A DNA stretch of 64,000 nucleotides, taken from Klebsormidium nitens (taxonomy: Eukaryota > Plantae > Klebsormidiophyceae). The stretch lies in NCBI GenBank assembly GCA_000708835.1, contig DF236974.1:301208-365207 (forward strand), written 5' to 3'. Below the pieces are notes generated by a model. The model made no database searches. It worked only from the letters and a program-made list of their open reading frames with translations, and was not told where the DNA came from. This document shows, piece after piece, positions 39,360 to 64,000 of this stretch. The translations under genes were made by a program, and so were the position numbers. The stretch's first letter is position 1; each line of letters starts with the position of its first letter.

Positions 39360-39935
39360 ATGCCATCTCAGCAGAGGGTTCCCCCAGCTCTCAACCTAGG
39401 GTTTGATGACCAGAAGAGTTTGCAGACGGGTCGATACATTGTTGATCCTGCCCTGAGTCTGTTCAGCGAAACGCCTGTAGCTAGCAAGTGCGTGTTATGC
39501 AAGCAGCCCCTCCTAATCAAAAGCGCGCAAGACCCGACACACAAAATCACTTTTCGCAAGTTTCACCAGTCCCTTCTTGGATTTGCCATCTCGTCAGCTG
39601 TTAAATGCAAACAGCGCGCGCAGCCCTTGTGTCTTTCTTGCGTACAACGATGGGTTGGCATTGTTCATCTGACTGAGACGTCAGTTACAGTTCAGGAAGA
39701 GCAGGCCACCAGTGAGACGTGGTTCAAGCGTGAGTCGCAGAGCACTCCCTGGAAGCAGGTCAAAGAGCTTACAAGCGGTTACATAGAGTACTTGGCGGTG
39801 CAGGATCATAGTGAGCAGGCAGTCAGTTACAGGCAAGGTAGCCAAATCAGCAGCCGAGAGCGCGCTCAACAGGGGAAAAACTGCTGGAGCGGACGTCAAG
39901 CGCAAGTTGCATGTAAGTCCTTGAAAGTGCAGTGA
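39360..39935 (+). CDS. Intronless orphan ORF with Cys pairs (possible zinc finger)
   Basis: Open frame 39267..39935, first ATG 39360; CVLC...CKQRAQPLCLSC; TATAAA near 39244; no recognisable family. Confidence 0.35.
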   Translation: MPSQQRVPPALNLGFDDQKSLQTGRYIVDPALSLFSETPVASKCVLCKQPLLIKSAQDPTHKITFRKFHQSLLGFAISSAVKCKQRAQPLCLSCVQRWVGIVHLTETSVTVQEEQATSETWFKRESQSTPWKQVKELTSGYIEYLAVQDHSEQAVSYRQGSQISSRERAQQGKNCWSGRQAQVACKSLKVQ

Positions 39936-40065
39936 GGTTCTGGTTTGGCTTTGACCCCTCTGAAACCTAACGCGCCCTGATGATGATGCTCTCAGTTTTG
40001 GATGGCACCCTGGACACCACCACCTCTTGTTTTTTCTTTGTTCAGGTTTTATTGGAATGAAAATT

Positions 40066-40175
40066 CCATGATTGAAAGTGAGGTGCCCAAGGTGCCAAGG
40101 TGCCACGCTGCAATATATTGTGCAGTGCATTTGTGTAGTATATATACTTTACAAGTATAAATAAAAAGGTGCCAG
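40066..40175 (+). repeat. Left imperfect inverted repeat of the KDZ element
   Basis: Shares, in order, CCATGA, TTGAAA, GTGCC, TGTGCAGTGCA, TATATA, CAAGTATA and AGGTGCCAG with the reverse complement of 45937-46044. Confidence 0.7.
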
Positions 40176-43100
40176 GGGTGTCAAGACCCCATCACCTAAC
40201 CACTGTACAAAAGAGCAAGCTAAATTGTCAATTGTCCTCCCAAATGCACAAGGATTTCACTGCAATTGACTGATTCAAGAGCTTTTTACACTGTTTTTGT
40301 GGCCAGCAAGTACAGTATGATCAAAAACTTGCAATGATTGTGCCCTTTGGTCAGAACCTTCTGCGGCTATCTGACTTGTTAGCTTAAGCTTTAATTACAG
40401 TGGCTCACTTCAAATCCATTTGCCCATCGCAGGAGGACCCTTCCACATCAGGCGCCGAGTCTTCAGACAGCAAGGAGCGCTGCCATGCCAATGGTGCGGC
40501 AGTTTCTTCTCTCACGTCTCAGGCGACGAAGTTCCTCGCGGGCATTCAGAACGGGACGTGCTCGATCTATGAGCTGGGGGGCGGTTCGGAACGAAGAGAC
40601 GAGGGTTCCCCTCGCCTGGTCTTCCTCATGACCGTCTGGAACCACAACGATGGCAGGCCAAAGCCGCTTGGACGACCGAACAAAGCCAAAGCCTTGCTCG
40701 AAACGGTCCACTGGGACACCCTAGGGAAGGCCAGCTGCACCTGCGACCGCGGGCGCCTGGGTTCGGACACTCCATGCGTCCACAAGTTGGCGCTCGCGGC
40801 TTTGGGGTCGCGCCAGCAAGCCAGCCACGTTGCGCTCCAGAAGGGCAGGCGGGTGATCGAGGTTCTATGCAGCAGAGGGGCTGAGCGGGTCTTTGGCGTC
40901 TACTGGAATGCAGCTTCCCCTTCGCCCAAGCGGACGATGGTGCACAAGCATGAGGGCGCGCAAGAGGAGTGGTACTGCCAGGGCAAGCAGTCGGGTTGTA
41001 GCACGTCGGGAGATTGCGACCACATTTGCGCTGTCAAAGACGCTCTCCGTCCAGGCAGAAGCATCGAGCGAGTGAGCGGTTGCTTGTTCTCTGAGGATCG
41101 ACTGGCAAGGGCACGTGCCTGGCTGCTCGAAACGGACAGGAAGGAGGAGAGAAAAGGGGCGCCGGAGTCGAAAGAGGGAGGCTCGGCAGAAGTGTCGTCC
41201 GACCTGTCTTCGGTCAAACGGTACCTGATGGAACTTTGCGTGGGCCAGCCTCATAAGGCAGGCTGCAAAGGGGCCTCGTGCTTCTGCAAGCAGCACCAGC
41301 AGCTCTTCGGAGGGGCAGATTTCGAGCGGGGGACTTGCGAGAACGGGTGCTGCCAAGTCGCGACTGACGCGCGCGAGGCCGGGGGGAAGAGAGGAAGACA
41401 TGAGCCGGGAGGTCGTTGCTCAGAACGGGTGCCAAAGCGGTCGAAAACGTTCTGGGCAGCTCAGCCAGAGCGGGAAGGTGGGCAGTTGACGGGAACGGGG
41501 GCGCTGCAAGCTGAAAAGGAAGAGGTTGTGCCTGCGCACGCTGCGCCGCAGGCGTTGGGTGGAGGGGACGGAAGGGACGCAATGAACGGCGTAACCAGAG
41601 TGTGCGCAAGCTGCGTATGCCCGGCTTCGGCTTGCCCCCATGTTGCCGGGAGTCCGCTCTGGGCTCCGGTACTGCCTTTGGACGCGAAAGGTGTGCAGCT
41701 CGAGCTCCCAAAGCTGGTTCGGCCGACTGACAGCTTCGAGGTGCACGATCCGCTGGTGACGTTGCTGCGGCGGCCAGTGAGAGTGAGCGAGCTCGTGCAG
41801 AGGGACTTCGAGGAGCTGAGCGCCGCGGGGTGCTTGTCTGCACCTTGCCCAAAGCCCGGGCTGGCTCCCTGTGGCACCGTGTGGCAAGCGTTGCTGCAGA
41901 GTGCATGCGTGCATTCACTGCGCTGGTCGCAAGAGGTACGTGATGCAAACTTCTGCCAGATCAAAGTGAAAGGTATTCGTTCTTTTTTGCAGCTTTGAGA
42001 ATATGCAAGCGCGTTGAAAAGATGCGAATTCATTGTGACCGATCGGGGAGCTTTGAGAAAGTCTCAATCGAGGTCGGACATGGCCGTTCAGGGCTTGTGA
42101 AAATAGTCTCGATTCTGGTCGGACATCTTGGACGTGCCAGTTCCGAAGTTTGAAACACTTTGCACACTGCTGACGTCATCAAAGCTGGGCGCCCAGAAAG
42201 TCTGCCGAAAGCTGATGTCTAGGTTCTTCAATGACCTGAAGTGCCTTTTCATCGGTCTAGGTTTTCGGAATCATATGCGTATAAAGAGTTGGGAGAACCT
42301 AGACGAGGAGGTTGCTGACGTCATCAGAAGCAGGCGACCAGAAAGCCTTTCAAAAGCTTGGACAACTTGCTCGAAGTTCGAAAAACTTTGCACGACACTT
42401 TGACTCAAACGATACCAAACGTTTTTGCAAATTCATGGACTTCGATTTGTGTTTTTAAGCGCGTGCACATTCTTGTAGGTCAAGGTTCGGGTCTATTGCT
42501 GCGGATGCCCGTTGAAGCACACCGTCCACTTCAACGGAGAAGCGCTTGGCCTGTACGCGTGGAGCAGGGCCATCATCGTCACGCAAGAGTCCTGCCAGCT
42601 CCTGCTCCGTTCGATTCAAGGGACGGGATCAGCGTTCAGCGCTCTGATCGGCGCACAGAAGGCGGTCCGGGGGCTCTTCTCGCCGGGTGCCGCTCCTCTC
42701 CTCAGCGAGGAATCATGGAGAAAGGTCTGCTTGGCCTTCTTCCGGCTGTGTGGGCGAAGCATCCTCGAGTGCTGCAGCCTTTGCGGGCCTCACCCAGACG
42801 TTCTGCTCTGCGACGGTATCGCCGGGCTAGCGTGCGCGGATGGTAGCAGATCGAAAGGGGGGCTCGCAGGGACGGCGGCAAGCGAACTCCGGCCATTCAC
42901 AGCTCCGAGCCGGAACGGATTCGGAGAGACCGTCGTGAAGCACATGGAAGCCGGTGTGAACTTCAGCGCGACTGCGCTAGAGGGGCGGGGACTCAAGAGG
43001 CGCCTGATCCACCAGCCGGAGCTGCGGGCGATGTTGGCGCGCTACAGCCAGCATCATCCAAAGGACCCAGAACTGGGGTCGCAGCTGAGCGAGAGTGAAT

Positions 43101-43434
43101 TCCACGAGCTGCTGGTAGGTGGATTGAATCATGCTTGTGACCAGAAACCCTTCGTAAGGTCTGCTTAAATCGGTTGAAATCAAACGAGATTGATCGGACA
43201 TGTCTTGAAAAATGTTCAGACCTTCCAATTTCGGAATGAGCGTTGCGCACGCTATCAGATGCCATCCTGCCACATATAGGCGCAATGACTTGTTCCAATG
43301 CTTAGCTGAGGTTCTTCCAATGGGGCTTGAATGGTTGACGTCGACTTTACAGCGATTGAGCGTTGCGCACACTGCTAGATGCTAGTCTGCTCCGTATCAG
43401 AGGTCTGTCTTTGACCAAAATACCTTTTGATCCG

Positions 43435-43940
43435 TCTAGGTTTTTGGAATGATATGCGTATAAAGAGTTGGGAGAACCTAGACGGCTTTTGGAGTCTTTA
43501 GGAACGTGCCAGCAGGGCCCAGTTGCCACTGTCCGTCGGTTCTGCAAAGAACGCAACAAGGTCTTCGAGTGGGGCTTTGGAATCGGTCTAGCTTTTCGGA
43601 ATGATATGCGTATAAAGAGTTGGGAGAACCTAGACGGCTTTTGGAGTCTCTAGGAACGTGCCAGCAGGGCCCAGTTGCCACTGTCCGTCGGTTCTGCAAA
43701 GATCGCAACAAGGTCTTCAAGTGGGGCTTTGAGATCGGTCTAGGTTTTCGGAATGATATGCGTACAAAAAGTTGGGAGAACCTAGACGGCTTTTGCGAGT
43801 CTCTAGGGACGTGCCAGCAGGGCCCAGTTGCCACTGTCCGTCGGTTCTGCAAAGAGCGCAACAAGGTCTTCCAGTGGGGCTTTGGAATCGGTCTAGGTTT
43901 TTGGAATGATATCCGTATAAACAGTTGGGAGAACCTAGAC
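43435..43940. repeat. Intronic tandem repeat, ~152-bp unit x ~3.3
   Basis: Unit starts at 43435, 43587, 43739 and 43892; a partial copy lies in intron 1 at ~42255-42304. Confidence 0.9.
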
Positions 43941-45333
43941 GAGGGCGCTTGACGTCCGCTTCGTTAGAGGTTTTTGACTTCTTTACTTCTACCTAGGTTG
44001 CGCTGGATCGTGATGACGTGGAGCTCGTCTCGGAGTTTGTCGCCAACCCTGACGATGCGGATGCCGAGCCCGTCTTGCTTCACTGGAGAAGGCGCCTTTT
44101 GCAGGAGCAGATCGGGCAGATCCGATCGAAGAACCGAGCTGCACGGCTGCTATTGAAGGGGATCAGGGGGGAGACCCTTGCTGCGCCTGGCGCCAACCCC
44201 GGTCGAGTGCGTTCGCCACGAAAATGGTGGGCAGAACTGCTCTACGCTCTGGGGACCCCCCAGTCCGTCGCAGACGACAGTAACCTGATCCAGCATGGAG
44301 CGGCATTGGCTGTTGTCCGGAAGATACTCCTGGGAGGCTCAGCAGATGAGCGGGGAAAGGCCGTGCTGGCTGAGCATGCGCCCATGCTTCGTAGGTTGCT
44401 AGATAGCTACGACGGAGTGTTTCCGGCATTCTTTTTGCCCACGCTCCACCACTTGTACCGGCTGACGCTGTTTGGACGCGGGGCAGTTGGGCTGGGGGTT
44501 GGTCGAGCCGGGTGGGCGCTGTCTGCTATCGAGGGGTTGGATGCCTGCGTTTGGCTGCTGCAGTTGCGACGGGACGTCCCAGGGTCTTGGAACGAGGAGC
44601 GAGAGGAGAGCTACAACTTCTGGAGAGGGAGAGCGAATCGGCTGCTTCCCGGCGTTGAGGCTCTGCGCCCACCAAAACCCCCCGAGTATGCCCTTAACCA
44701 AGCCGAGCGCGAGCTGCTGCACGATCGGCTGGGGTTCTCCGGGGACGGACGGCTCCTCGAAGCGCTCCCCAACGACCACCCTTACTGCCGAGAGCAGAAC
44801 GTGCTCGGCTGCTATCCCCTCCCCGGTTGGGAGCAGAAACGGCCCATGCCTCAGTACAAGCCGTTTGAAGATGAGCTTGGTCGGGCAGTCGAGAGCAGCG
44901 AGGAGCACCGCTGTAAGAGCAGTCTCACGGTCGGGGAGTTTGATGCCAAGGTTGCGGCTGCCAAGAGTGAAAAGGCGGGCAAGCGGCTGCAGCGGCATAC
45001 AAAAGGGGGTTTCGTGTTCTGTTGCCCGCACAGGGTGATTTACAGCTTTCATGCCATGCTCGGGGGGAGTCTCCTCGTGATCCCTTTGCGGTGTTGTACA
45101 CCCGCCTCCATCGGCACAACCTCCCTTCCTTCCTGTTCTACGACAACGCCTGCAAGCTGCGCGCGTACAGTATGCGGCGTGAGCCTGGGTTTTTTGCAGA
45201 CATGCGAGCCCTCGTTGACCGGTGAGCGTATACACCGCAAACACGTCCATGCTTTGCGAACTGGTCGTTATTTTAGGACAAGATAATCAACATTTCCAGG
45301 TAGATTCGGTGTCATTCTGCCAGCTGCTGTCCG

Positions 45334-45520
45334 TGTCCAAGCTGTCCAAGCTTTTTGCCAGACTTTCTGTGAGCCCGATTGTGATGACGTCAGCAATCGT
45401 CCCTTGTCCAAGCTGTCCAAGCTTTTGCCAGACTTTCTGGGAGCCCGGTTGTGATGACGTCAGCAACCGTCCCTTGTCCAAGCTGTCCAAGCTTTTGCCA
45501 CACTTTTTGGGAGCCCCAAG
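45334..45520. repeat. Intronic tandem repeat, ~70-bp unit x ~2.6
   Basis: TGTCCAAGCTGTCCAAGCTTTT units start at 45334, 45405 and 45475. Confidence 0.9.
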
Positions 45521-45936
45521 CTGTCCAATATTGCGCGTACAGGTTCCACTTCCAGAAGACTGGCGCGGAAGCTCACAAGTGCGGCCCTCAGTATAACCCT
45601 GACTACTACGACGCTGTGCGCTGGGTTAACAGTTCAGCGGTGGAGAGCGTCAACTCCTTCTTGATCAAGTTCAAGGTGCTAGGTTGGTTTAGTGGTCTCC
45701 AGGCGTTCATGATCATCCTAGCTAACGTAGTGAGCGGGCGCAACGCAGAATTGACACGTGTTGATGACCAGAAGATTAAGATCGCCTGCAGGATTCATTT
45801 ATGGTCGCCGGCAGTTCGCGCAGCTCTCTTGTACAGGTGACAGACTATGTGTTGATGAATAGCTAATGAGCTTCCCGCAAGCGTGTGGGGAGCTATCGTT
45901 CATGAGGGGGTGAAGGAAAAGGAGTTAGGACACATA

Positions 45937-46044: not shown

Positions 46045-46115
46045 TGCATCTAGTGATTCGTCAGGAGACCTTCAAGTATCTTCTTTTCATAGGGTAGACA
46101 GTAAAGCACGTTGCT

Positions 46116-46403: not shown

Positions 46404-46557
46404 TGTGCTTCTCCATTGCATGTTCCATCGAACCGGCCGTTGCTTTTCACGCGTTTGCATGGAGGGCGATTTCTGTCAAGATCAAGATTTCAACGCGTCC
46501 GGATTCTGAGAATTATTTTCCTTAGTACTCATCATAGGGGCCCTGCCCAGCCCTAGA

Positions 46558-49012
46558 ATGCATTCGGACCTCAATGAAAGCATCTCATCGTACCGGAGCC
46601 TTGATCTCCTGCCGGTTACGTTCAAGCTTACATGGAACAAACTGGATAAGAAGAAAGACGCAAGTACCTTTAGATGCTCATACTCAAGCATCGTGGATGA
46701 GATTTCTTGGGGGTTGCACGAAGACACAATTCGCAACTGTTCCGACAAGAATGCCCTTGCCCTTCTATGCGGACGATCGGGCCCAAACAGCATTATTATG
46801 ATTGATATCGACTTGCCCAAAATGAATGAAAGCAAAACCTTTGCTAATGGTCTTGATGTCTGGAAACGCTTGACAAAAGCGCACGGCGAACCTCTCACCT
46901 GGACAGCCGAAACACAGAGTGGCGGCTTGCACTACTACTTTGAGCGGATTCCCCCGGGCTTGAACGGAAGGCAGACGCAACCAAGCTATACATCAACTCC
47001 AGCCAAACGACTATTGATTTTCGAGGCAATGGCATATGCTTCGCACCCCCCACTACCATCATTCGTGACGGTGAAGAGCGTTCATACGAATGGCTAAAGT
47101 CTCCTTGGAAAACGAAGCTTGCCTGCCTTCCGTTGTGGCTCGTAGATATCTTGAACGCTCAAGACTCCACAAAGCAAGCTGCCCAGGGATCGACAAAACA
47201 CCCCAGCAATAATACATCAAGTGTGAGTAAAGCAGAGGCAAAACATACAATTACCACAGAACTCTCGTCTCAGCAAGCAACCTCTTCCATCGAGGCCGAA
47301 AAGGCAATCCAAGTTGCAACGCAGCTACTGCGAAGTAGATGCAACGATGAAACAAGTTTCTACAGACTCGGCATCAAGCTTCGAGATGGGGAAGCCATCT
47401 TAAAGTTCAGAGTGAAGGAGAGCAGAATCTGTCCTTATGGAGAGGAACACACGAGCAACAGTTTCAGCATCATCTGCAACGGGATCTGCATGGAATACCG
47501 TTGTTTGTCATCAGCATGCAAAGAGCGACCAAGAGTGCTTCTCGGGGTGCACCATTGGCCTTCGCTTTTGATTTCCAAAGCACGTTTTGATCTGCGCCCT
47601 ATCGAGGAAGCGGAGAGAATCATATCAAGCAGCAAAAGCAGTGTCGACAAAGTGCAGTATCAAAGCATGTGCCAACAACTCACACAGACTGCTATCGACA
47701 CGATGAATCACTACTTCTGCGTTCTAGACGGCAGCTCAAAAGTGCTCTTTATCGAGACCATCTTCGTTGAAAGAGGTACTACTTGGGTGTCAAATGACAG
47801 CATCATTCGAACAAGAGCTGAGTTCTTGGAACGGGTCGAATCATTTAACCTGGACAATCTTAAGATTGGCAACCTTGGAAAGGTGTGGTGCAAGTCATCA
47901 ACGAGAAGGACGCTCAACAAGGTAGTCTTCGAAGCAAACTCTCGTCTGGTTTCGCCTAACAATTACAATCTGTTCTACGGCTTTCCCTTCGCTTACGAAG
48001 CGGATCAGCCTGTTGACATGAAACAAATCGATCTTCTCTTGAAGCATATCAACGAGGTATTGGCAGACAATGATCCTGCTGTAGCGGACTACCTTCTAAA
48101 CTGGTTAGCTCACCTTGTTCAGAGACTGTATAAGAAAATTGGTACTGCACTTGTGTTCAGATCTGACCAGGGCGCAGGCAAATCGATCGTGACAGATTTT
48201 GTGGGGAAACATGTCATCGGATCTCGATACTATCTGTGGAGAAGGTGATAGGCAAATTCAACGGAATAGCTGCAAATCTCCTTTTGGTTTGCTTCGATGA
48301 AGTAAGCAGTTGGGGTGGGGCCTACAAAAGTAATAACAGGTTGAAAAGCCTCATCACTCAAGATACAACAATCCTAGAGAAGAAGGGGATCGATCCCCTT
48401 CAGGTACCCGATCTTGCTAACTACTGGTTTAACACTAACGAAGACTGGCCGATCAAAAAAGAGGCAACCGACCGGCGCTACGCATGCTTTGAGGCCTCCG
48501 ACTCTAGAATCGGAGATCAACCCTACTTTGATCGGCTTTGTGAAAGCCTCACTAGCACTACAGCTGAACACTTCTACCGGTACTTGATGTCAAGAGAAGG
48601 CATCGACACTTGGAACCTCAAGCAGATCCCAAAAAGCAAGTGGAGCTCTGCTCTCAGGGAGCACTCGATTCCATTCTGGGCAAAGATGATATGCGGGTTG
48701 CTGGACAACGGCAACTTTTCATCAGATTCGAAGACGAAGGTGCTAAGCGCCACCATCTTCCAAACTTATAGATCCTTCGTAGACAATCAAGGTGCAAAAG
48801 AAGATCCGCCGCGACAGAAAGACGTTCTGATTGGTCGGATCAAACGAACACTTGGACTGGATGGTTACAAAGATGTCAGTGGTCGCGGTTTGATCTTTCC
48901 AACAAGGAGTGAGCTGGAGAAACGGCTGCAAGAAATCCGCATGCGAGTCGACGAAGTTCATTGGGACGGATCATGGCCTTCTGACCCAACTTTAGTGATC
49001 TCATCGGCTTAA
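46558..49012 (+). pseudogene. Primase-helicase A: Prim-Pol (bifunctional primase/polymerase N-terminal) + Cys/His module + DUF5906/NrS-1-like SF3 helicase; intronless, two frameshifts (~46944-46980 and ~48236)
   Basis: MIDID...TAETQSGGLHYYF, then shifted frame IDFRGNGICFAPPT...YEW...LPLWLVDIL; CPYGEEHTSNSF...YRCLSSAC; Walker A SDQGAGKS; Walker B CFDEV; motif C FNTNEDWP...DRRY. Confidence 0.85.
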
Positions 49013-49039
49013 TGTTCTACAACTCTGACTCAATACCTA

Positions 49040-50104
49040 TCATTTCCTTTCATAGGTAACCATTGCTGTCCCCCAGTCGTGCAACATGCGATTTGCTAAC
49101 TGCTTCCTTTCAGCGATTGGGTGATCATTCACGAAATGTTCACTGATGTAAAGGTGCCTAAGATGGTTTTGGTTCAAGTGTTTGCCTGTAGGGAACGTTA
49201 TCGATGCCATAAATTTTGTAAGGTAATTATCTGACATGGCTTCTGTTGTATTTCCCAACCGAGAGAGACAAAAACCTCGAGGAACGAGCTCGATGGATCT
49301 TTTGATGTAGTTGCTGAGTCTCTGGCTGAGCTCAAATTCGCCTGTTCCGTAGCGCCTACATGTCTTATAGGTCTTGAGTACAAGCACAAATTCACCACTT
49401 GTGCTTTCACGAAGGCAGTTCCCGGTCTCCTTATATGTTTCTTTGGCTTCGTCGCAGTAGAAACTACCGTCAGCTTTCTGAAGAGGGAGACCGCTGAGAT
49501 CCCTTCTCTTAGGTGGCTCTAGGATATTGAACGCAAGCAGTAGGTGCTGAAACACTACTTTCACGTCGTCTCGGCTGAGATTTGCATCGTTTTGTTTCGA
49601 GTTTGGCATAATCTTTCTCCGGATGTGTCTGTTGAGCTCTTTCGCTTTGCTTTTGAGCTCGTCCATAGAGATCCAGTTTGCAGCTTCTTTCTCCGTTGCC
49701 TTCTGTTCACTGGCCTTCTTCTCTAAAGCCACCTTCTTCTCGGTGAAGGCTTTGAAATAAGTCTTGTATGTAGCGTCCCATTTCTTCTCGTGAGCCACGA
49801 CCATCAGAGGTGTCAACTTATTCTTGTAGGTGCCAGGGTTGGGGTACTTTGCGTTAAGTTTTTCGAGTATAGAAGCAGTATCTTTAATCCAATCCAATGT
49901 GGAAGGCAAAACGTTGCCTCCTATCACAAGGTGATAGATTAGTCGTACACTATTCAGGTATTGGCAGATCGTAATTTCAGCCCGCTTTCCATCCTGAAAC
50001 AGGTTGCGTAAAGCTGCCTCACCTGATGATATCGTTCGCTGTACATCCCCTTGATTGTTGGAAGTCGATTCCGTGCTCGATTGAACGGATGCTTTTGAGT
50101 CCAT
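49040..50104 (-). CDS. Tyrosine recombinase/integrase of virophage/Polinton-like-virus type, intact ORF
   Basis: Catalytic set in expected order: PPKRRD (R), TYKTCRRYG (K), NHLRHLYIS (HxxR-like), ERKQLANRMLH (H), AMVTYERK (Y). Confidence 0.85.
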   Translation of the reverse strand: MDSKASVQSSTESTSNNQGDVQRTISSGEAALRNLFQDGKRAEITICQYLNSVRLIYHLVIGGNVLPSTLDWIKDTASILEKLNAKYPNPGTYKNKLTPLMVVAHEKKWDATYKTYFKAFTEKKVALEKKASEQKATEKEAANWISMDELKSKAKELNRHIRRKIMPNSKQNDANLSRDDVKVVFQHLLLAFNILEPPKRRDLSGLPLQKADGSFYCDEAKETYKETGNCLRESTSGEFVLVLKTYKTCRRYGTGEFELSQRLSNYIKRSIELVPRGFCLSRLGNTTEAMSDNYLTKFMASITFPTGKHLNQNHLRHLYISEHFVNDHPIAERKQLANRMLHDWGTAMVTYERK

Positions 50105-50623
50105 CACTACCTTATACTACAGAGACCCATTTTAATTCTGAGATTAAAACGAGGCGCATTCTTGAGATGCGTCCCCTAGGGAATCGTATTCTGGAATTTT
50201 CTGCTGCCCAGAGCAAACAGCTTGGAATTGGTCTATCGACCACTGCCTCATATGACCTTACCACCTGAGGTGGCCTTCATTCCAGAATTAAAACTCTGGA
50301 GCCGCAAATTTTCCCAACATGCGGTCAAAATGGCAAAAGCTCCCAGCAAAAGTTTGCTCCCGGGGTCCCAAATTTGGTGTTAATTCGTACGAAATAGGAA
50401 TTTGCCTTCTAGAATAGTGACTGGCACAGTTCAACTTTTCAAAGTGCTTCATGTAGACAAGAACATGCCTATATAGGGGCAACTTCTGATAATCATTTGT
50501 CAACAATCCTGCCGAGTCAACGAGACAACCAAAGTGCTTCAGGGGGGCAACCTCTTAAGTAGGCAGCATGATGCATTTTCGTACCTCCTTTATTATCTCA
50601 CGTTACATCATACAGCTGCCTAA

Positions 50624-51217: not shown

Positions 51218-51273
51218 GAGACAGAAGCCTAACAGTATAGACCTATTTTTCTTTTCATAAACAAAAATATAAA

Positions 51274-51624: not shown

Positions 51625-51647
51625 GTTGGCCGTTGAGATGTGCGTTA

Positions 51648-52100: not shown

Positions 52101-52215
52101 GACAAGATAAGCTTTCGAAGCCTTATCTAAGCCAAATCCTCAAACATAAGTGACAACGTTCTAAGGTTCGGACAAGCTGTGTACAAGATCCTGCAGACCA
52201 AACTTATCGGGTCAC

Positions 52216-55200
52216 CTACTCTGCTTCATAATGACTTTCAATGGCGACGAACACCTGTGGCCTCTTACCAAAGTCGTCTATAGATTCCCGTTTCTTCTTT
52301 ATGAAACCCTTCTTTGCCATCCTATCAGCTAAGCTTTCAACGCTAATTGTGAGCTCTCCTGAGGCTGCTTTATAATCGTTGAGAAACCCCGCAGCGTTGC
52401 CTCTGAGCGCTGGACCCCTCTTGCAGTGTTCGTCAATGAACTGCTGCAGCTTGTCGTTCTTTGCGAGATACTGGTCCAAGTTCACCGCGACAGAGGGAGG
52501 AACAACCCCAAGCGACATCCCCTGACCGGAGAACTTTACGGCCCCTCTGACCAACCAGGAGAGAAGCTGCTCAAGCGTCTCCTCCTCTTGCATCCTTGCC
52601 TTCAACCCTCCATCCAAAGGGCGGTGCCGAGAGTTGTTCGAGTCAAACTTTTCCCGACTTACGTAGAGGTTGGGAAAGTCAAACACAAGCAGCCGACGGT
52701 TTATAGCTGGGTCGGTTACGTCTTGAAATTTAGGGGGGTGGTTTGTCATAAGGACAGGTAGGTTCATTAGGGGAAAGGTCTCCGTTTGGCCGTAAGGTGC
52801 ACGCGCAGAGATCAGCCCTCCCCCAGTTGTCGCTTTCACTGAAGCCGCATCGAGCTCTTCCTCTTCAGCAGTCTCATCAGTGATGCTCAGGCGAAGCCCT
52901 TTCGGTGCGTGCATGTGAGGAGTTGGAGCGCCCTTTGAAACTGGTCTCTGCCCGGCCGTTTTCACCACCACGTCCTTGGACATAACACCGCAGTATGGGC
53001 CAAAAGTCTTCTCCAGCATCTCTTTTGTGACGCCCTTTCCATTGCCTGCACGAACAGTAGAGGAGTCCTATGAGCATTTTGCAGAATCCAACCGTACCTA
53101 AGCTGAACCAGAGCCCGGAGGTGGGAGCTTCCAAAAAGATCCACCTTCAATGGTATGGAAGACTTTCGGCTCTTGTGACCAGTGCCAAACCTTCATAGGA
53201 CCAACATGTCCAATCGAAGGGCAGAAAAATCATGTCCGACATGTCCGACCAGTAGCAAGACTTTTTGAAGCATCTGGACGGCAAGGGCTAGACTGAGCTC
53301 TCAGGACTTGAGTCCAACATGTGCGACAAGGAACAAGACTTTTCATGTGCGACATGTCCGATCAGAAGCAAGACTCTCTCTTCAAGAGCATCATCGTACG
53401 TTGAAACTGTTGTCCCAGTGACGCTTCGTACTCTAGACTATTTCTCTAGGATTGAAGCGGTGCTGACACACCAAGTCTGGAGGCAAAGAAAAAGCAGGGC
53501 ACCGTAGGCAGGCAACTCACCGCCCAATCCAACCAAGAACACGATCTTCTCGCAAGCAACGGACCCAGTGACGCCGTACCCAAGAACAAGCTGGAGAGTC
53601 CAAATGACTTCCTCGTCTCCGTTGAAGACATCGTTGAAGAAGTCGTCAATCCGAGGGGAGGGAAGATCGAGGCCCTGCGGTCGACTTGAATAGTGTTATT
53701 TCCTCTTAGATTGGAGAAGCGTGCCGTGCGCACGTCACTTGTGAACGAGTTCGCAGATGCAGGCATTTGGTCATGTCCGACATGTCCGACCAAAAGCAAG
53801 ACTTTTCTCGAGCGTCATGTCCGACATGTCCGACCAAAAGCAAGACTTTTCGACAGTAATCGACAAGGTTGGATCCAGGAGCACGCCGGAGATTTACCCG
53901 GTAATATGTGTTTGCAAGCTTGCTGCACATGTATTGGGGGCGATGGATGTCCAGCTTGCCAGTGCGCAAGTCGATTACTCCATTGTTGACGTTGAGGATG
54001 TTAGGATCGCTGTCGAGCTCGTTGAGAAAGGTGCTCGAAAACATCTCTCCTTTCGTAACCCTTAATGTGTCCTCTGCAGCGCGCCTGTTGTTGTAGTCAC
54101 GAAGTTGCCTAAGCCTCCGCTCAATTTCGGCTACCTTCCCCTTGTCAGTTGCGCGCTTCAACTCTTTTTGCAGATCGTTCCTGACTCGGTCTATCACCGT
54201 GCTCAACTGATGCATGAGGATGTATAGCACCTGGACGTCTAAAGCTTTCTCGTACACCTTTCCAGTCCAGATGAAGAAGCCTGCGGGAGTGTTCACAATC
54301 CTGGAAAAGAGAGCGTGAACGAATGATTCAGGATGATTTACAAAGGTCTTGAACGGTCATGTCCGAGATTAACGACCTGAATCAAGACTTTCTCAACTGA
54401 ACCTTTCATGTCCGAGATGTCCGACCAGAGTCGGGGGCTTTCTCAAGGGTTCTGAATGATACATGTCTGACATGTCCCACGAAGAACAGGGGCTTTTCAA
54501 AACGGCTTTACTCTAGCCCCCCTTGGCTTAAGCAGTCTCTGAATATTCAAGTCTTCAGGCATCCTCGAACATCCGATTCAGAAAAGCCATGCTCAAAAGC
54601 CACCTCTGCACGACCAATCGCACAAATATAACGGAGGAGTGGAAGCAGCTTGAGCAACTTTAGTCGTGTGCCTACCTTTTACAGAATGAGCACATGTATG
54701 AGAAGATCCGGCTGCCGCCCTTGTCTCCTTGAAACGCCCAGAAGTCCACGAGCTCCTTCGTAACACACCCGTAGATAGCTTCATCTCGATCAGCATCAAC
54801 CGGCTTGACAGAAGCTTCACCCTGGGCACAACTCAAGACGCCAATCTGCTTCCGTGGCCTGATGATGGTGCACTCTGGAGAGTTGCACACGTACTCGAGT
54901 CTGCTGCCCTTCACTTGGACGCAAAAGTTGTTTGACCCCTGATGTTGATGGCCATAAGGGCACGTACGTTCCCCTTGGACCCGAAAGACGTACAGGTTGC
55001 CCTTCCGCTTGTCAAAACGCGAAGTACTGTCGCCGCATGCCGCAAGGCAGCTTTTGATCTGCTGAAGCACTGCAGCATCTGGCTCTTCACCAAAGACCCC
55101 CGCAACATCGGTGGGCGGTTGGTGAGCGCTCACCCTCTTGCTCAACACAGCGATAGTCCTGCACCATGAAGGAACTTATTGTCAAACGTGCAATCATTGA

Positions 55201-56255
55201 GCTGATTTTACAAAATGGAGGAGAATTGGTCTGTATCCGTGCACCCAGAAGTAAGTCAAAGCGAGCTTGTTGATCTGAATCCTGACGGTCGGAAGAAGCC
55301 TAGGCGTTGATGTCATCTGTCTGCTGAGGAACGCTTCTCTTCACTGAAAGTACCGGTCAGTTTCAATTTTGAATGTTTAGAATTGGAGAAATGGCGATCA
55401 GTCAGCTAGGTTGATTCTGACCCAGGCTGTGAGGCAACTTCTTCCACATGCTGAAGGCTTAAAAACTCACCCTACAGCCGCATCACTCCGGTTGAGGATG
55501 TCAATCAACCAGTTCGTCATGGCCCTCAGGTTGCTACGATCCGCTGCAATCTCCTACTCCCACCGGTAAGCTCTCACTGTCTCTCCATCCCGCCCTATGT
55601 ACTTGCTGGGCGAAATGAAGCAGATGCCCCCATTGCCGCGCACATCGATCCCCACTTGGCACCCCCCACACGAAATCTTTTCCCTGTTGTTGCAGTTCAG
55701 CAACCCCGCTGCGCTCGACTCTGAAAGGCTGGAGAAGAGATGCAGACCGCCGTTGCCCGTCCTCTCTCTGGGAGTGTCTTTTGGCAGCGCACCATGGGCG
55801 GTGACCATTTCCTCAAATGCCTTCAAGCCGTTGTCTTTCATGTCAATGTCGAGAACGAGAACGTCCGACTGGCTGCCCGTGATGATTGCGAGGCACGGTG
55901 CTCCTGGGCGGACGAAGTCTGAAAGGCAGTTGTCGAGAGTGCAGCCCTTCCAGCCGGCGGAAAACTGGGGGAACTTCTTCTCTTTACCGTCCTTCATTTC
56001 GGTGTTGATGTGAAGCGTGACAGACGCTACACCCAAGTCGAACAGACGTTGCGCAGCAGCCAGACAGATGTCCGCAGGAGGCTGGCTAGGCAGGTTGCCA
56101 GTGACCTGCACAGAAGCAACACGGTTTTGAGCGAAGCATGAACATGTAGGCCTCATGCGACTGGCAAGGGGTGGACTTTTGGCGCCGGCATAGCTGCGCA
56201 GGATCTGTGTAAGGGCGCAGCAGAAGATCACCGAGTAACGCTTTAATGTGCTCAA
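52216..56255 (-). pseudogene. Primase-helicase B: Prim-Pol + Cys/His module + D5_N + D5/P4-type SF3 helicase; exons ~56255-55471, 55158-54676, 54300-53898, 53674-53521, 53045-52216; nonsense TAG at 55556-55554; 5' end uncertain
   Basis: VLDID...RTGNGGLHL...IDVRGNGG...SPS; LNVNNGVIDLRTG; spliced YYR|GLDLPSPRIDDFFNDVFNGDEEVIWTLQLVLGYGVTG; Walker A GLG(G)|NGKG rebuilt across an intron; ITDET; MTNHPPKF...RRLL; four phase-consistent GT-AG introns. Confidence 0.88.
53200..54490. repeat. Dispersed ~35-bp repeat CATGTCCGACATGTCCGACCA(A/G)AAGCAAGACTTTT confined to introns 2-4 of primase-helicase B
   Basis: Copies at ~53231, 53345, 53772, 53816, 54358, 54407 and 54462, none in exons. Confidence 0.85.
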
Positions 56256-56399
56256 CGAGCTTGATGGAGATTAGAGGTCCTTTCGGCTGTACATGGTTAA
56301 TCAGCAGCTTGTATGTTTGGTCTTGTTAATCGACGTACCTTGCATAACCAAGCGACGGCAACCAAGAGAGATTTCTGATTGCGAAGGCGTCAAAATGCA

Positions 56400-59338
56400 A
56401 AAGAAAAAGTCCTGTTGTAGGCCGGACATCTTGGACATGAGCATCTTCTGATCAGCTGCCGAAAGACCTTTACCGATTCAAGAGAGGAAGTAAAAGTGAC
56501 CTGGGAGGAAAGCCTCCGTCAGCTTAAAAACGCTTCAGCAAGATTGACAAGTTACAACTGCCCGCCCAGGCTGCGCCAAGTCTGCAGACGTTTGAATTTC
56601 GTTCACAACCTCGTCCTCAGTCTTGGCAGTGGCCACAGCCAGTTGGGCACGAGGCGTGCCTTGGACCTGCGAACACAAAGAGCGTCTTCGGATGAACAGG
56701 CAGTTACATTTGGAGAGTTTTCCTTCCACCGATTGGAAGGCTTCCATACGCTTCCTTCTGCCTGCCTGTTCTCAGTAGACCAGAGAGTTGCGAGCTTAAG
56801 AAGGGTCTCGCCGAAGACGTCAGATTGAAAAATTCACGTTTCAGGCCGGACATCCTGGACATGAACCTGTGTCGATCAGCGTCAGCGCAATCGGCGATAT
56901 ATCGAAGGAATTTAGCAGAAGACGTGAGAGGCACTCATTGCTTAACGGCACTCTGACCGTCAAACAGCTGCGCTCAAGGTCCTCCTCGAAAACATAAGAA
57001 GCTTTCACTTACGACAAGCTTGGGGTGCGTCGACATTGCAGGACATGTCCAAGCATCCTCCTCCCGCTGAAGGCCCACAGACATCTGAGGCCTCAAAGAG
57101 AAATCCTTTTCAACCGGGGCTGCCGCCTGACTGCACCTCAAATGCTGATCTTATTTTCAAAGACGTCAGATTGAAAAACTCGTGTTTCTAGGCCGGACAT
57201 CTTGGACATGAGCAACATAAAGATTGGCAAAAAGAAAAGTCATGTATTGAGTCAGACATCTCTGACATGGACCCTCCTCCCAAACAGTCCATGGGCACAG
57301 TGAGAGAGAACCTGAGAGTTGGAAGAGACTCGAAACTGACATTCTTTGGCTGCTTCAGCTGCTTCGTTATCGAGTTGCATTCAAGGGAAGGTTTACTTAC
57401 AGGAGACTTGATCTGTGCCACAACCGGAGAAGAAATTGCAACCTGAACTTGCTGTGTGCACGGAAGCTTGTGATCCTGCAATCAACAACAAAGGCGCCTC
57501 ATCAGAACGATTGGCCGTTGCGAGCGAAGATTGCAAGTGCTCCCAGGTCCACAAACAAGCAATTCAAATTCAGAAATGATACAATTGAAACATTCGGCGA
57601 GACTACCTCCAGAGCGACTTGAGATGGCGCCTGAAGGTGGTTGGAGAACTCTTCTCGCATTTTCCGTTGCCTTGCTTCAAACTCGCTGCGCAGAAGTGTT
57701 TGACGAGCAAGCGCATCAGGGATCAGAGAGACCTGCCAAGCAGAAAGAAGTCTGTCAGAACAATGAGTTGGAACTAAGCAAGTGGTCCAATGCGCTGTAT
57801 TGAATCTCTGTGATGGTCAGAAGCGATCGCGACAAACAAGCCTCCCCTCTCTGGAAAGAGGCCTGACCCCTGTGTATCCTTGAAATCTCAACAAGCTGAC
57901 CAAAGGGCTGTTGCATGCTCACCTGAGGCACTGTAAGCAGTGACGGCTGCAGAGGTGAAAGGACTGGACCACCCCCTTCCGCAGACTGGCCGGCTTCAGA
58001 GCTAGCAGTCCCACCGTTGGAAGAACTTGTGCTGTTGAGGAGGACTTTTTGCCGCTTAGCATGGCGCTGAAAACGGCCAGGCGAGAGCGACATGTCCCCC
58101 ACGTCTTGGCTCAGTTGTGCAAGGCTGCCGTCGTTGTGGTCTCCATTCAGGCCCGCCGACATCTCACCCTCTTCCCAAATGAGGGACTGCGACGAAGAAA
58201 TGCATCCATCCAGATCCGAGTCCTTGATGTGTTGGATAATTGACGCCTGATGCCATTTACAAGTGCAGAACGAAGCAGAAGCTACTTTGTCAAGCCCCTG
58301 ACCTGAGTATCAGCAGGTGCATGCTACCTGGGCCCCTCTTTTCAAGCAAGCTGACCTGGTCAATGACAACTCGTGCAACGACTCTCCCTGATCACTGCCA
58401 TCAGAGGACTTCTCGTCATACTCTGCGTTTTGAACGTCTTGTCCCTCCCCTTCGCTGGAGGTGGTGTCTGCATCAGACGACATCTGTTCACACAGTGAAA
58501 AGGAGATGCTTTTAGAGAGTGCAAACTGCAACCGAACTTGTCTGCTCATGACAAGTCCAAGCAGAAACACCCCCATGACTGAAACAACCCTTGACTCACA
58601 TCGTTTTTCCACTTGCGATCTTTCAATCTGCCGAGCACACCAAGAATGAACTACCATAAAAAGCCCTGAGGCTCAGTCTGAATCTCCAGATGACTTTTGC
58701 AGACTTATGTAACCTCCCTCACTCGAAACCGCTGAAAACACCACCACCAGCCAAGCAATATCTTACTTATGCGAAGTCGATTGGAGGCGGCGCACTTGCA
58801 GATTCCCAATCGGCCAGCGATCTAAGCCAAGAGTGCACCCTCCCTCAAGCGCTGCGCTCACCTCTTGCACCCTGTTGGCGCTCGGAGCAAGCCGCTTTTC
58901 AAAAAGCCCTTGGCAGGGATCAGGCAGTCAGCTCAAGCATCTGCCGGCGCTGCGCAGCTGGAAGATGTACGGTGTGCCCTGCTGGCACACTTTGGCAGTT
59001 GTCCGATTGAGACGCTGCTGTATGCAGGTTGCTTCTGAAGAGAGGAAAAGAGGATGCCGAGCTGGAAGATTTAGGAGAAGCTAATAGAAAGACAGTGCTG
59101 GGGGACTAAGAGAATGAAGGTGGCAGGTCTTCTTTCATACCTCTGGGCAACTGGCCTGGCAAAGAATGTGCGATTGAAGGCGGACAAGCTGGACATCAAT
59201 ACTAGGAGGGCTTCAGGCTCAGATGCGGTGGTTGTTTGCAGTTGAGCGATTCCTACATGCGGGTTCCGGGGCCGAGCTCTCTCTGAAGAGAGAATCTTAC
59301 TCCAGACGTCTGAGCGAGCTCCAACTCAGCTGTTGCAG
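56400..59338 (-). other. Degenerate, probably spliced sequence of unknown identity containing GGACATC(T/C)TGGACATG repeats
   Basis: Short low-complexity minus-strand ORFs (57755..58162, 58310..58657); repeats at ~56421, 56844, 57191; duplicated ~50-bp block 56817-56864 vs 57163-57211. Confidence 0.3.
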
Positions 59339-59690
59339 TAAGGCCCTCGTTACATTGGCGGCGGACGGCAGAACAATAAACAAATGCTCAAAAGGGTGGA
59401 ACTTGGCCGGAAGTGCCGAAAGTCTCCAAAACGTTGCAGTTCCGCCGTCCGGAAATGTAACGACACCGAGGCACAGCCGACGGCCCAACAATTCAGAATG
59501 CCACGGTGGCAGGCAAACCCCTAAACCCCTGTCCGCGAAAACCTTGAATCTGGCGCCAAATTGCCACCAGGGGTTTTCAAATGAGGGTCCAAACATCTGT
59601 ACCTCAAGAATGCCCCAAGGCAGTGGACGCTTCTTTCTGTGAGGAGCCAAAGTTGCTCTTAGAGGAGGAAGACTTGACTGGGGAGCTGAT

Positions 59691-61058
59691 ATGGCGTCCT
59701 CACAAGTAAGGCGAGTGCTGCTCATCACAATCCTGAAGGTGATCTTGCAGCTTATTCAGCTTTTGTCGGACAGTAGCATTGCGGCCGCTAGGAACCAGCT
59801 TTATGACGTTCCAGGAGGCCTGCTGCTGGTTGAGGGTTGTCTTTCACTGCCTCACCTCTTCAGAGGTGATAGGTCCGTGTGGAAGTACGATAGACAGACT
59901 GGCTTCTGTGATGTCTCCTTGTTGGCATCCTACAATGAGAAGATGTTCAAGAGCAGGATCCGATTGAGCAGGACACTCTTTTACAATATCTGCTCCCAGC
60001 TCGCTCCAGTCCTGGAGAAGTTGGGAACGCACCTGAACGCAGCAATTCCTCTTCACACTAAGGTTGCAGCAATTGTATACAAGTTAGCTCATGGGGTTAG
60101 TAATCCCGTGATCTCAGACTTGTTTGGGATTGGGACATGTACAGTCAGTGTGTTCCTGAGAGACTTTGTCAGAGCTGTCCTTCATATTCTCAAGCCTCAG
60201 TACATCAAGTGGCCCTCAACTCGAGCTGCACTTCAGAAGTTAGCAGAAGGTTTTGAGGGGCTTAGGGGTATTCCGCGGATTGTAGGGGCTATAGATGGCA
60301 GTCACATACCAATCATTGCTCCAAAGAGTTGGCCAGCAGATTACTACAATAGAAAGGGTTTCCACTCTATCCTGCTCCAGGGTATTGTGGACCATAACAG
60401 CTGCTTTTTCAACTATGACATAGGGTGGGCAGGCAGCCTTCACGATTACAATCTTTTCAAGCGGAGCAAAGCTTTTGATCGCTGTGAGGAGGGGTCGTTG
60501 CAAGGGTTTTCACTGGTGGGTGATGCTGCATACCAGCCAAGAACCTACATGCTGACCCCCTTCCTTGGCTGCAAAGAGGGTCTAAGCAGGGAGCGCTACT
60601 ACTGGAACTTCATCCAGAGCAGCACAAGGATGCCAGTGGAGTGTGCTTTTGGGGTGCTCAAGCTGCGTTGGGCTTGCCTTCTAAAGCGCCTGGACGTTGA
60701 CACCAACTTCGCACCCGACCTCGTTGCCTGCTGCCTTGTTTTGCACAACATGTGCCAGGTGCACAAGGACGAGGTGAACGAAGAGTGGTACAGGGAAGCT
60801 CAGGAGGTGCTTGGAGCAAACGCTCCTTTGTCTACTCCAGCGGACGTTGAGAATCAACAGCCACCTGCCAACAACACTAACCCGTCTGTACACGTCGAAG
60901 TTGAGGAGGACCCTGACGAAGATACACCACAAGAGATGCCAGCGTATAGATTGGGTGTTCAGTATAGGGCCACACTTTGCAGGCTACTGTACGATCAGGA
61001 GCGTTCTCGCAATGCTAGTTCTCTTGGCTTCGATGTAGATGAAAGCGAGGAAGCTTAG
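59691..61058 (+). CDS. Harbinger DDE transposase (DDE_Tnp_4/HARBI1-like), intact and intronless
   Basis: FKSRIRLSRTLF, GAIDGSHIPI, YYNRKGFHSILLQGIVD, GWAGSLHD, LVGDAAY, RMPVECAFGVLKLRW. Confidence 0.95.
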   Translation: MASSQVRRVLLITILKVILQLIQLLSDSSIAAARNQLYDVPGGLLLVEGCLSLPHLFRGDRSVWKYDRQTGFCDVSLLASYNEKMFKSRIRLSRTLFYNICSQLAPVLEKLGTHLNAAIPLHTKVAAIVYKLAHGVSNPVISDLFGIGTCTVSVFLRDFVRAVLHILKPQYIKWPSTRAALQKLAEGFEGLRGIPRIVGAIDGSHIPIIAPKSWPADYYNRKGFHSILLQGIVDHNSCFFNYDIGWAGSLHDYNLFKRSKAFDRCEEGSLQGFSLVGDAAYQPRTYMLTPFLGCKEGLSRERYYWNFIQSSTRMPVECAFGVLKLRWACLLKRLDVDTNFAPDLVACCLVLHNMCQVHKDEVNEEWYREAQEVLGANAPLSTPADVENQQPPANNTNPSVHVEVEEDPDEDTPQEMPAYRLGVQYRATLCRLLYDQERSRNASSLGFDVDESEEA

Positions 61059-61946
61059 GCGAGGCCCGGACAAATCTGCAATTGGGCTGCCAATGGACTG
61101 GACAATCTAATTGGACTTTGAGAGTGTACGTCATGCTTCGAGGAAGTAGATCTTCTTCATTGCAGCTTATGCATGCATCTTTGGGCTAAATTGCATCCAT
61201 TGCGTGCATCATACTTCGACCCCGGCCAGATCTATTGAACAGATCCCGTGCACTGAAATTGGATGACTGGCATGCATAGCGAGTTTGGGCTGCATATTGT
61301 GCAAATTCAAATAGTGCTGATCTCATTCATTGTTTCATTGTATTGCTCAAGAATTGTGTGCATGTACAAGGCTTTGGCCCGTTCTTCATTTGCTTATGAG
61401 AGTCGTGCACATTTGAAGTTTGCAGATCTGACTCACCCGGTCTTCTTTTGCTTCTCAAACGGTTATTGATATGTCACAACCTTCGCATCATACTTCGACC
61501 ACACCTTCTTTTGCATAAAGTAGTCACTGACTCGTGCACAATTGAAAGTTGCAGACCCTGGCCCGTTCTTATTTCGCTCGTCAATCGGTCATCTGCATGT
61601 TGCGTGATGGGGGCATGCACATCATCGAAAACAAGGCGGGCAATGATGTCTACGTTGCATCGATGCTCCAATCTGCCTTGCATATTTCAGTACATGCTTA
61701 TTACAGTACATGCGTGCCTTCTATACGGTGCTTCATTGAGTCTTTTATTCCTTCAAGCAATCTATAGAGCCGCTTGTGAAGTCGTTTTAAAGGACAATCT
61801 GCAACACAAATAGACCTCGCTTCAGGAGCAGCTACGTACGTGGTGAGTGGCAAAGGAACGAGCAATGTTTGAGAACAGTACAGCCCAATTAATGTTGACA
61901 AGAACTCGTCAACAATTCATACTTGTACAAGGTACAACATGTTCTC

Positions 61947-63483
61947 TTACAGCTTCTCCACAATACATCTGAGCAGATCGGTGAGGTCCGAAATCTGCTT
62001 GGCTTTCCGATCCTCGACCTTTGTGTACTCTTCCATGAATGCCTCAGACGTGCTAACAAAAGTGGCTGACAACTCAGACGCTACGCTTTCCCTCTTGTTT
62101 CCACGCTTCAGCTTATCCTCTGAAAAGGAGCTACCGCTAGAGTTGGGCTTCTCACTACATTCCGAGAGCACCTCCACTGTCTCTGAGTCGGCATGGGCAG
62201 CACAGTGAACGGTGGCCTTGGACGCAAAGTGAGAATCCATCAAATCATAGTGCTTGGACCTGTCACCCCTGTCATGACCAGACTTTGCATTCTGCGCCTT
62301 GTCACCCTGATAATCCTTGAGCTCCTTAGCAAACCTCTTTCTGCACGCCTCAGCATTCTTGTTGAAATCAGGGCAGTTAGCGAGGATCTCGGCAGCCACC
62401 TTGGTCCAGAGATCCACGCCTTGCTTGGGGTTGTCGAACTTGTCCTTCAGGAGAGCTCGCTGTTCGATCAACTGAACCACCCACTCGTCCTTCCACAGGC
62501 GGTTTGCGGCCTCCTGGAGAACCGCAGGATCGACTGGTGGCGCTTGTTCCTTCTTCTTCCTGGGGGGCCCCCGGGTGTTGTTCTTGGTACCGGCTGGTCG
62601 TCCACGCTTCTTGGTTCCTGCCGACCAGATTAGAAAGCCCTTATGTGAGAAAGGCAGATGCTACGTGTGCTACTTTCTCTCATCAGAGGATTCAACCAAG
62701 GATCCAGCCAAGTCTCTACATGTTCTTAAGCAGATGTAGGATAGAACGCTTCAGCAAGCATTGAGGCAGGAACAGGGCTCTGCAACTAACAAGAGGCTTG
62801 CATAGCCAACAGAAGAGCCTACAGGAACCAGAAGAGCTTACAGCAACATCCTTATTAAACAATCTACAGTAAGTCTGCAAGCTTCCTGCAACCTTTGAAT
62901 AAGACACCATCTCCTTGACTGAGCATCCCTGTGACGAAGACAAGTTTTTGGAACAGCGTACAATGAGCTACCAAGCATCCAAAAACAAAATTTTCTTGTG
63001 TGCACTGCTCCCTTCAACATTCCTTCCAACAATGGTATAGGTCAAGGATGCTTACAGGCCCCCAGAAACTGCAGGCAAGCAGGCAGCAAACAGAATCCCC
63101 GCAACATGCAGTATACTAGCAAGAGGCATTCACCGGACAATGCAAGCAATCAGTGTTGAACCTGAGAGACAGGTTGCACCTCACTGACCTGTTTCAATCT
63201 GTGCTGCGGTCGCCGGAGGTGCACCTGGCAGCGGAGCATCCCGACTGGGAGGGCTGACGTAGACGTTCTGGGGGGCTTCAGCAGGAAGGTTGTCTTGTCC
63301 TGGCACACCTTGAGTAGATTGGGGGACTTCCTGTACAGCAGGTATACCTGCTTGGGCTTGGAGGTAGGTAGAGAATGAATCTGGGGTCAGGCATTGATTG
63401 CTGTGCAGGGCAGGCATGTTGAGGTTGCCAAGGAAGCCTATCTCCGGGTTGAAGCCGCCCTCATCTTCAGGGCGCCGATCCAT
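61947..63483 (-). CDS. Harbinger Myb/SANT (trihelix) DNA-binding protein with AT-hook; exons 63483-63189 and 62617-61947
   Basis: ATG 63483; phase-1 GT-AG intron; KKRGRP AT-hook, then LWKDEWVVQLI...DLWTKVAAEI...ACRKRF...YDLMD. Confidence 0.85.
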
Positions 63484-64000
63484 GGCGTCTTCCTCTTTGC
63501 TACAACGCACTGATGCAGACTGCAGACTGCCACTGCTGCCTGTGCTTGAAAGGCCGCGCCAAATCCTGTTCAAGGGCTTTTCCCGCCTAGACCATCATTC
63601 ACTGATGCGGTGCGCTGTGAGTGGCCCAATAAACCACGTGGATGCCCGGCACAAAAAGAGAAAAGTTCGACCCACCATGGCAGTGGGGTCGAACTTTATA
63701 CATTCTTGTGCCGCTGACGTATGCAATAAAAAAATCCACTTCCGCCGCCCTACAAGCTAACGTAACGGCAGTACAACATTTCCGGACTGTTAGGAGCCAA
63801 CCAGAGAATTTCTTTAATGACCTGCTCTGCCGTCCGCCGCCAATGTAACGAGGGCCTAAGGCGACTCCGGAGTACGGTGGCTTGTCTCTCTGGAAAGGAG
63901 GACTGACTCAGGCGTCGGAGCGAGCTCCCACCCCTGGATATCGGAATTAGGGTCCAGCCGGGCATGGGCACGTGTATTGAACTAGAAAAGCCACCGGATC

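Follow-up and report, generated by a model that had tools for sequence, protein, structure and literature searches.

A primase-helicase gene of the P4/D5 type is located on the minus strand of a 64,000 nt stretch of Klebsormidium nitens contig DF236974.1 (GCA_000708835.1; this whole stretch is referred to as the window). It is interrupted by introns, several of them containing the same repeat, which raises the questions of whether the introns are real, when they entered the gene and what the repeat represents. The copy is transcribed, correctly spliced and broken in its primase part, and the repeats are likely to be iteron-type sites for the predicted winged-helix domain of the helicase. The reading we prefer, held with about even confidence, is that the gene is the intron-rich replicase of an old mobile-element family, present here as a primase-dead but transcribed copy whose introns have collected iteron-like sites.

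Splicing and structure of the gene

The four introns between the Prim-Pol exon and the end of the gene, i8-i11, all have GT..AG ends, with junctions at 55470/55159, 54675/54301, 53897/53675 and 53520/53046 on the minus strand. A preliminary description, made from the letters of the window alone, had placed the junctions at these positions and had proposed an RNA check across them; both the intron ends and the joints seen in RNA contigs bear out the placement. All four introns were joined in contigs from 5/5 RNA-type runs representing 5 studies and in 0/2 DNA runs (one sample), whose contigs continue through the introns. The runs carry no RNA label on record and their RNA type was inferred from GT..AG joints together with gaps in cover where the DNA runs covered; the lack of RNA cover over 46170-51505 and 59510-61500, both covered by the DNA runs, marks the runs as non-genomic and is not a sign of silence. 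RNA contigs from 4/4 runs (4 studies) show no letter differing from the window anywhere in the stretch 52216-56255. With GT..AG ends, removal in RNA and retention in DNA, which is the pattern of U2-type introns, i8-i11 are genuine spliceosomal introns. No open reading frame (ORF) of at least 100 aa lies entirely within any of the four, hence no homing-endonuclease frame is found there, the folding energy of i10 is not beyond that of shuffled sequences (z -0.83), and no Rfam match was obtained across 38000-64000.

Read in the direction of transcription, the Prim-Pol exon (PF09250; 55471..56105) is followed by i8 (55159..55470, 312 nt, phase 2), an exon encoding a Cys/His linker domain, CPYG..H.GSNNF, common to the closest relatives (54676..55158), i9 (54301..54675, 375 nt, phase 2), the exon with the D5_N domain (PF08706; 53898..54300), i10 (53675..53897, 223 nt, phase 0) and an exon that ends with GLGG, the first half of Walker A (53521..53674). 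Intron i11 (53046..53520, 475 nt, phase 1) is situated within Walker A, and the last coding exon (52216..53045) contains the second half of this motif, Walker B, motif C, a predicted winged helix and the stop codon TAG, past which the RNA contigs extend to about 51964. Translation of the joined exons confirms the earlier claim that the P-loop GLGG|NGKG is assembled solely by splicing out i11, and an alignment with relatives showed Walker A to be invariant. The further claim, that splicing restores one frame, is correct in that all four joints are in phase and incorrect in that a TAG stands in frame at 55556-55554.

The assignment to the P4/D5 family, also made earlier, is supported by matches to PF09250 (E=6.5e-15), PF08706 (Pfam) and TIGR01613 (139 bits, cut-off 108.7). 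The best sequence match in PDB is 7OLA, the PriRep5 of the staphylococcal pathogenicity island (SaPI) SaPI5, while the best fold matches of the structure model are to C962R of African swine fever virus (ASFV), with a template-modelling (TM) score of 0.64 at about 16% identity. The C-terminus of the model has the order helix-strand-helix-helix-strand-strand, a winged-helix-like topology, with a predicted local distance difference test (pLDDT) of about 73-89. The term phage-type, used in the preliminary description, is to be taken as a family label and not as an origin, since the tree leaves the donor unplaced.

Compared with the first description, the gene is longer and carries more damage. The transcript has seven further GT..AG introns, i1-i7, from 58861 to 56106, and in 4 RNA-type runs the joints of i1-i5 were present in 4/4, that of i6 in 3/4 and that of i7 in 1/4. 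The 5' leader exon reaches to at least 59332 and is followed by i1 (58861-58484) and two N-terminal exons (58483-58356 and 58186-57923) matching the N-terminus of the paralogs P0003 and P0199; these exons are mutually out of frame at the observed junction of the intron between them, i2 (58355-58187). The region 56106..57922 is occupied by i3-i7 and four small exons (57732-57607, 57475-57401, 57084-57013 and 56666-56501) that break the frame and have no counterpart in the paralogs. A direct joint between the exon that stops at 57923 and the Prim-Pol exon would keep the frame, so i3-i7 are likely, judging from the sequence, to be one ancestral intron with newly used splice sites. In the weakly spliced i7 an identical 9 nt is found across both junctions (56106 and 56500), 4 bases past the splice consensus.

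The reading frame that would run from the primase through the helicase is interrupted by the TAG inside Prim-Pol (55554..55556, minus strand), which is present in both DNA and RNA contigs; paralogs have a sense codon here, and P0199 is open at this place. Read-through of this codon was considered and rejected, since TAG also terminates both this gene and the transposase of a neighbouring Harbinger element. Behind the TAG the helicase frame is open over 639 aa with Walker A and B. In the annotation of the open paralog P0199 (GAQ86674.1) the primase-helicase follows a LINE-type (long interspersed nuclear element) reverse transcriptase within one fused protein, which probably reflects merged gene models or an insertion.

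Age of the introns and the repeat within them

Relatives that have no introns exist. One locus (L087, 33% identity) has a single open frame spanning all four sites of i8-i11, and P0007, P0043 and P0044 (35-39% identity) are single gene calls, from which it follows that the introns are gains. When the boundaries of homologues were compared, taken as the ends of gene calls on unspliced DNA, P0197 (85% identity), P0201 (77%) and P0198 (52%) were found to stop precisely at the i9 donor, P0051 (83%) to continue through i9 and into i10, P0200 (68%) to lose homology at i10, and P0194, P0195, P0045 and P0192 (55-86%) to start just after Walker A. The same sites interrupt homologous fragments of 52-86% identity, so the gain appears to predate the spread of the family; relative to the intronless relatives the introns were gained, yet not by this copy, and the proposal that gain took place in this endogenised copy is not borne out. 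In a tree of 38 rows, hand-chosen from about 200 proteins, the five intron-split rows form one clade with support 100/100 and without a resolved sister. No intronless joint was present among the DNA-run joints listed (2 DNA runs, one sample). Searches for close-relative loci gave none in viral contigs, 0/3 true matches in prokaryote genomes and, in metagenomes, none with a first pattern and 1/6 true with a second. At L087 an F-box-like ORF (1791-2447, E=0.0039), divergent from the intronless relative, gives a weak hint of a context of eukaryotic viruses.

A repeat of 36 nt is found in i9 (54357, 54406 and 54461), i10 (53771 and 53815) and i11 (53230, 53308 and 53343) but is absent from i8. A 36-nt matrix built from these 8 copies gave, at a score cut-off of 10, 16 matches in the window against 1.0 expected (50 Markov resamples), all within 42057-57270 and 0 in 1-42000: 8 in i9-i11, 4 reversed copies in i5-i7 (56405, 56829, 57176 and 57235) and 4 in predicted introns of a KDZ-like transposase gene on the plus strand. 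That three introns share a repeat is therefore correct, as first described, but it is not peculiar to these three. The core of the repeat is GGAC at a 9-nt period. Of the GGAC doublets in the D5-type gene 7/8 are intronic, and one doublet is situated at 59182 in the region of i1 and the leader exon. The motif is also found at other loci in other DNA contigs, where D5-type and KDZ-type variants occur side by side, and the i9 of P0051 keeps it as a 57-nt tandem.

The shared repeat had been taken to suggest a common mechanism of intron gain, for which comparison with Introners had been recommended. Introners are defined by similarity that reaches both splice boundaries, similarity confined to the interior being treated as a secondary insertion, according to the part of PMC9860276 available. 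Here the copies sit 47-299 nt from the splice sites. After masking of the motif, pairs of motif-bearing introns score 15-24 against 19-25 for the motif-free control pairs, intron ends are alike at 5-11/30 bases, and no terminal inverted repeats (TIRs) were found. An Introner was therefore rejected, the similarity being confined to an internal motif short of both boundaries, between unrelated ends, and a recent Introner-like gain is not supported. No repeats resembling target site duplications (TSDs) were found at i8-i11, the 9-nt direct repeat of i7 being the only one. A 20-nt pattern of the motif had 1 viral match, which fell inside a gene resembling those for phage tape-measure proteins and was put down to chance.

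Iteron likeness and competing explanations

To get a better understanding of the repeat, the ends of viral primase-helicase genes were searched. From 545 viral loci with relatives the 80 best (L006-L085) were selected, of which 76 had 400 nt past the stop and 62 remained after removal of near-copies, and GGAC pairs at an 8-11-nt period (doublets) were counted in the region -60..+400 of the stop codon. GGAC came out as the top of 88 words, with 69 doublets where 5.25 were expected, although counts inside one locus are not independent. Counted per locus, a doublet is present in 23/62 (null mean 4.8, maximum 12 in 1000 draws) and both orientations in 16/62 (null 0.21), the two sets mostly facing each other across a spacer richer in AT, whereas the other gene ends of the same loci have a doublet in 40/426 and both orientations in 2/426. 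In SaPIs the iterons are located behind rep as opposed sets around an AT-rich centre and are bound by a winged helix (PMC9371898, accessible part), and PriRep5 binds 7-nt iterons two bases apart (10.64898/2026.10.17.759575, accessible part). The window likewise has short direct repeats in two orientations. The iteron reading of the intron repeats is, by this analysis, a supported likeness. It is not membership, as the window departs from this layout, the viral loci are distant and the exact doublet is found in 2/62. This recurrent, origin-like signature behind viral P4/D5 genes is itself a usable marker.

The preferred reading, an old family's intron-rich replicase, would involve the following course. 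The ancestor of the family would have come from a replicon of viral or plasmid-like kind that had no introns, and would have acquired these introns once, after which the family would have spread as DNA with the introns in place. Origin words (GGAC at an 8-11-nt period, normally just past the stop) would later have been copied into the introns, these being the sole insertion-tolerant places inside the genes of the element, and the intronic copies may be extra loading sites, titration sites or relics. The usual view is that introns of endogenised viral genes are a sign of decay; here they are common to the family and cleanly spliced, which points to an element adapted to nuclear life. Should the helicase itself use these repeats as its sites, cis-acting origin DNA would be stored safely in introns inside the replicase gene.

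Several observations weigh against this reading. The viral loci are only 25-33% identical and GGAC is a word of 4 letters, the exact GGACA-N4-GGACA occurring near the stop in only 2/62 loci, and the iteron reading leaves the upstream 16 nt of the 36-nt motif unaccounted for. In the window there is neither a doublet behind the D5 stop nor an AT-rich spacer, and its two repeat sets diverge where the viral sets converge; with sets that point apart and have no AT-rich centre, the repeats are not a canonical origin. Confinement of the motif to this cluster of elements was seen in one window only, the motif could be a transposase site since it is also found in the KDZ-like gene, and no element ends were found around the D5 and KDZ genes. 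That the intron sites are shared was read from the ends of gene calls and not from DNA, and the sharing of i11 and i8, based on start positions, is less well supported than that of the others. The tail of P0103 also resembles a frameshifted exon at the i9 site, so this homologue may lack i9; in shuffles such a resemblance was reached in 0 and 2/200 for 20 residues picked by eye and in 15 and 37/200 for the entire tail.

The repeat could instead belong to the KDZ-like transposon, as a binding site or a subterminal repeat, or be a non-autonomous small repeat; in either case it would have entered existing introns, and its likeness to the viral GGAC words would be due to chance. This is a possible though doubtful alternative: the motif in both genes and at other loci, the 60-nt inverted pair (85%) inside the KDZ-like gene and the missing AT-rich centre speak for it, but GGAC heads the list of 88 words behind the viral D5 genes and its period agrees, and the copies lie inside genes with no TIRs found at element ends. 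We consider it unlikely that a capsid-less, self-replicating transposon of KDZ and D5 genes moved its origin into its own introns, where the helicase would load, and that dropped origin fragments seeded some introns; if true, this would be a route of intron gain distinct from Introners.

That the introns were created outright by inserted origin fragments or by an Introner-like element with the repeat, their flanks having diverged since, seems improbable. The motif is present in 6/11 introns, the four coding introns are all at G|G sites, the direct repeat of i7 spans both junctions and P0103 possibly has no i9, but the masked motif-bearing pairs are like the motif-free ones, with dissimilar ends and no TIRs, and the motif is better conserved than its flanks, fitting later spread or selection. 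In addition i8 has no motif, i9 is shared at 52% identity and no intronless allele was seen among the DNA joints listed. We regard as very improbable that the gene is a domesticated, host-expressed helicase that has lost its primase and whose repeats are host regulatory sites. Splicing in 5/5 RNA-type runs, the open 639-aa helicase frame with Walker A and B and a close homologue on a 156-kb contig would agree with this, but the helicase Met is preceded by several upstream frames and the premature stop, a Pro is found here where three close homologues have Leu, and the 5' end of the transcript adjoins the Harbinger insertion. As the orientation of the motif changes along a single transcript, an RNA splicing signal is disfavoured.

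When compared with known systems, the gene resembles SaPI5 PriRep5 and P4/D5 proteins in its primase, superfamily 3 (SF3) helicase and C-terminal winged helix, the last predicted here. Its short iteron-like repeats, with a period of about 9 nt and two orientations, are also like those of SaPI5 PriRep5 in the accessible parts of the sources (PMC9371898; 10.64898/2026.10.17.759575), but here the gene is nuclear and split by introns, the repeats are intronic and divergent with none past the stop, and the primase is broken. ASFV C962R and poxvirus D5 are alike in fold, as the best matches of the model, but the primase here is of the Prim-Pol type and introns are present. One repeated sequence in several introns is a feature of Introners, which occur inside endogenous viral elements of dinoflagellates according to the parts of PMC9860276 and PMC12166617 available, although here it falls short of the splice sites, at old shared sites and without TIRs. 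As here, virus-type genes of decaying endogenous giant viruses and of mirusviruses have introns with GT-AG ends, including one in a conserved motif (PMC12768974, available part), but in contrast to the mirusvirus introns no homing-endonuclease frame is present and the sites are common to a multi-copy family. Neither a capsid nor another giant-virus core gene was recognised nearby with Pfam, which misses many such capsids. Introns are known in genes of giant endogenous viral elements in green algae. In the accessible parts of the literature, subscription papers being mostly outside the search, no report was found that pairs KDZ with an intron-rich primase-helicase or that describes intronic iteron-like repeats; the RNA support for the introns and the link to iterons are what is new here.

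Genes surrounding the primase-helicase

The likely KDZ-type transposase gene (39249..45840, plus strand) has a frameshift near 45066 and a CxC4 match that is below the cut-off (E=0.0078). No KDZ Pfam match was obtained on single exons, and we take the gene to have the transposase core motifs and a SWIM-like motif. Its predicted introns are 41936-42478, 43115-43996 and 45222-45542, and related repeats are located at 42057-42136, 42310-42369 and 45331-45516, two of the predicted introns holding doublets. Tandem arrays are also present in its predicted introns, a 152-nt unit x3.4 (43430-43941) and a 70-nt unit x2.6 (45334-45516).

Between the KDZ-like and D5 genes, which converge on each other, stands a middle module, 46510..50116, without GGAC doublets. 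It consists of a second Prim-Pol/SF3 gene (46510-49012, plus strand), intronless and frameshifted, which converges on a tyrosine-recombinase-like ORF of Polinton-like-virus type (50116-49040, minus strand) whose nearest clusters are Preplasmiviricota. That the neighbours have no introns, as first described, holds for this primase/recombinase module (46.5-50.1 kb) and not for the KDZ-like gene (39.2-45.8 kb), with its at least 3 predicted introns. KDZ/Plavaka elements (PMC8226300, PMC11244446) and Polinton-like modules (PMC12220804) that join an archaeo-eukaryotic primase-superfamily 3 helicase (AEP-S3H) to a tyrosine recombinase (YR) have, in the parts of these papers available, similar genes side by side. 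DNA contigs with variant letters indicate several related copies, up to 8 per site for the KDZ-like gene and up to 6 for the middle module. A search for capsid, packaging ATPase and polB with Pfam among 26 + 14 ORFs/exons found none, although many such capsids escape Pfam, and the 25 longest of 247 inverted pairs in 37500-64000 contain no TIR/TSD enclosing both genes, although the right end of the element may be beyond the window.

An apparently complete Harbinger/PIF transposon (59342..63856) with 35-nt TIRs, a TAA duplication and DDE_Tnp_4 and Myb ORFs has inserted at the 5' boundary of the D5 transcript; all contigs, of RNA and DNA alike, break off at 59332. The element is flanked by a 23-nt direct repeat, at 59303 and 63909. 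Small ORFs of unknown nature are present at 50624-52097, and the module 46510-52100 is of lower GC content. The first 38 kb of the window are filled by host genes, among them the intron-rich genes at 33000-38140, which we presume to be sulfate-transporter-like, and 16143-16892, with an eIF2D/PUA-like exon according to weak Pfam matches.

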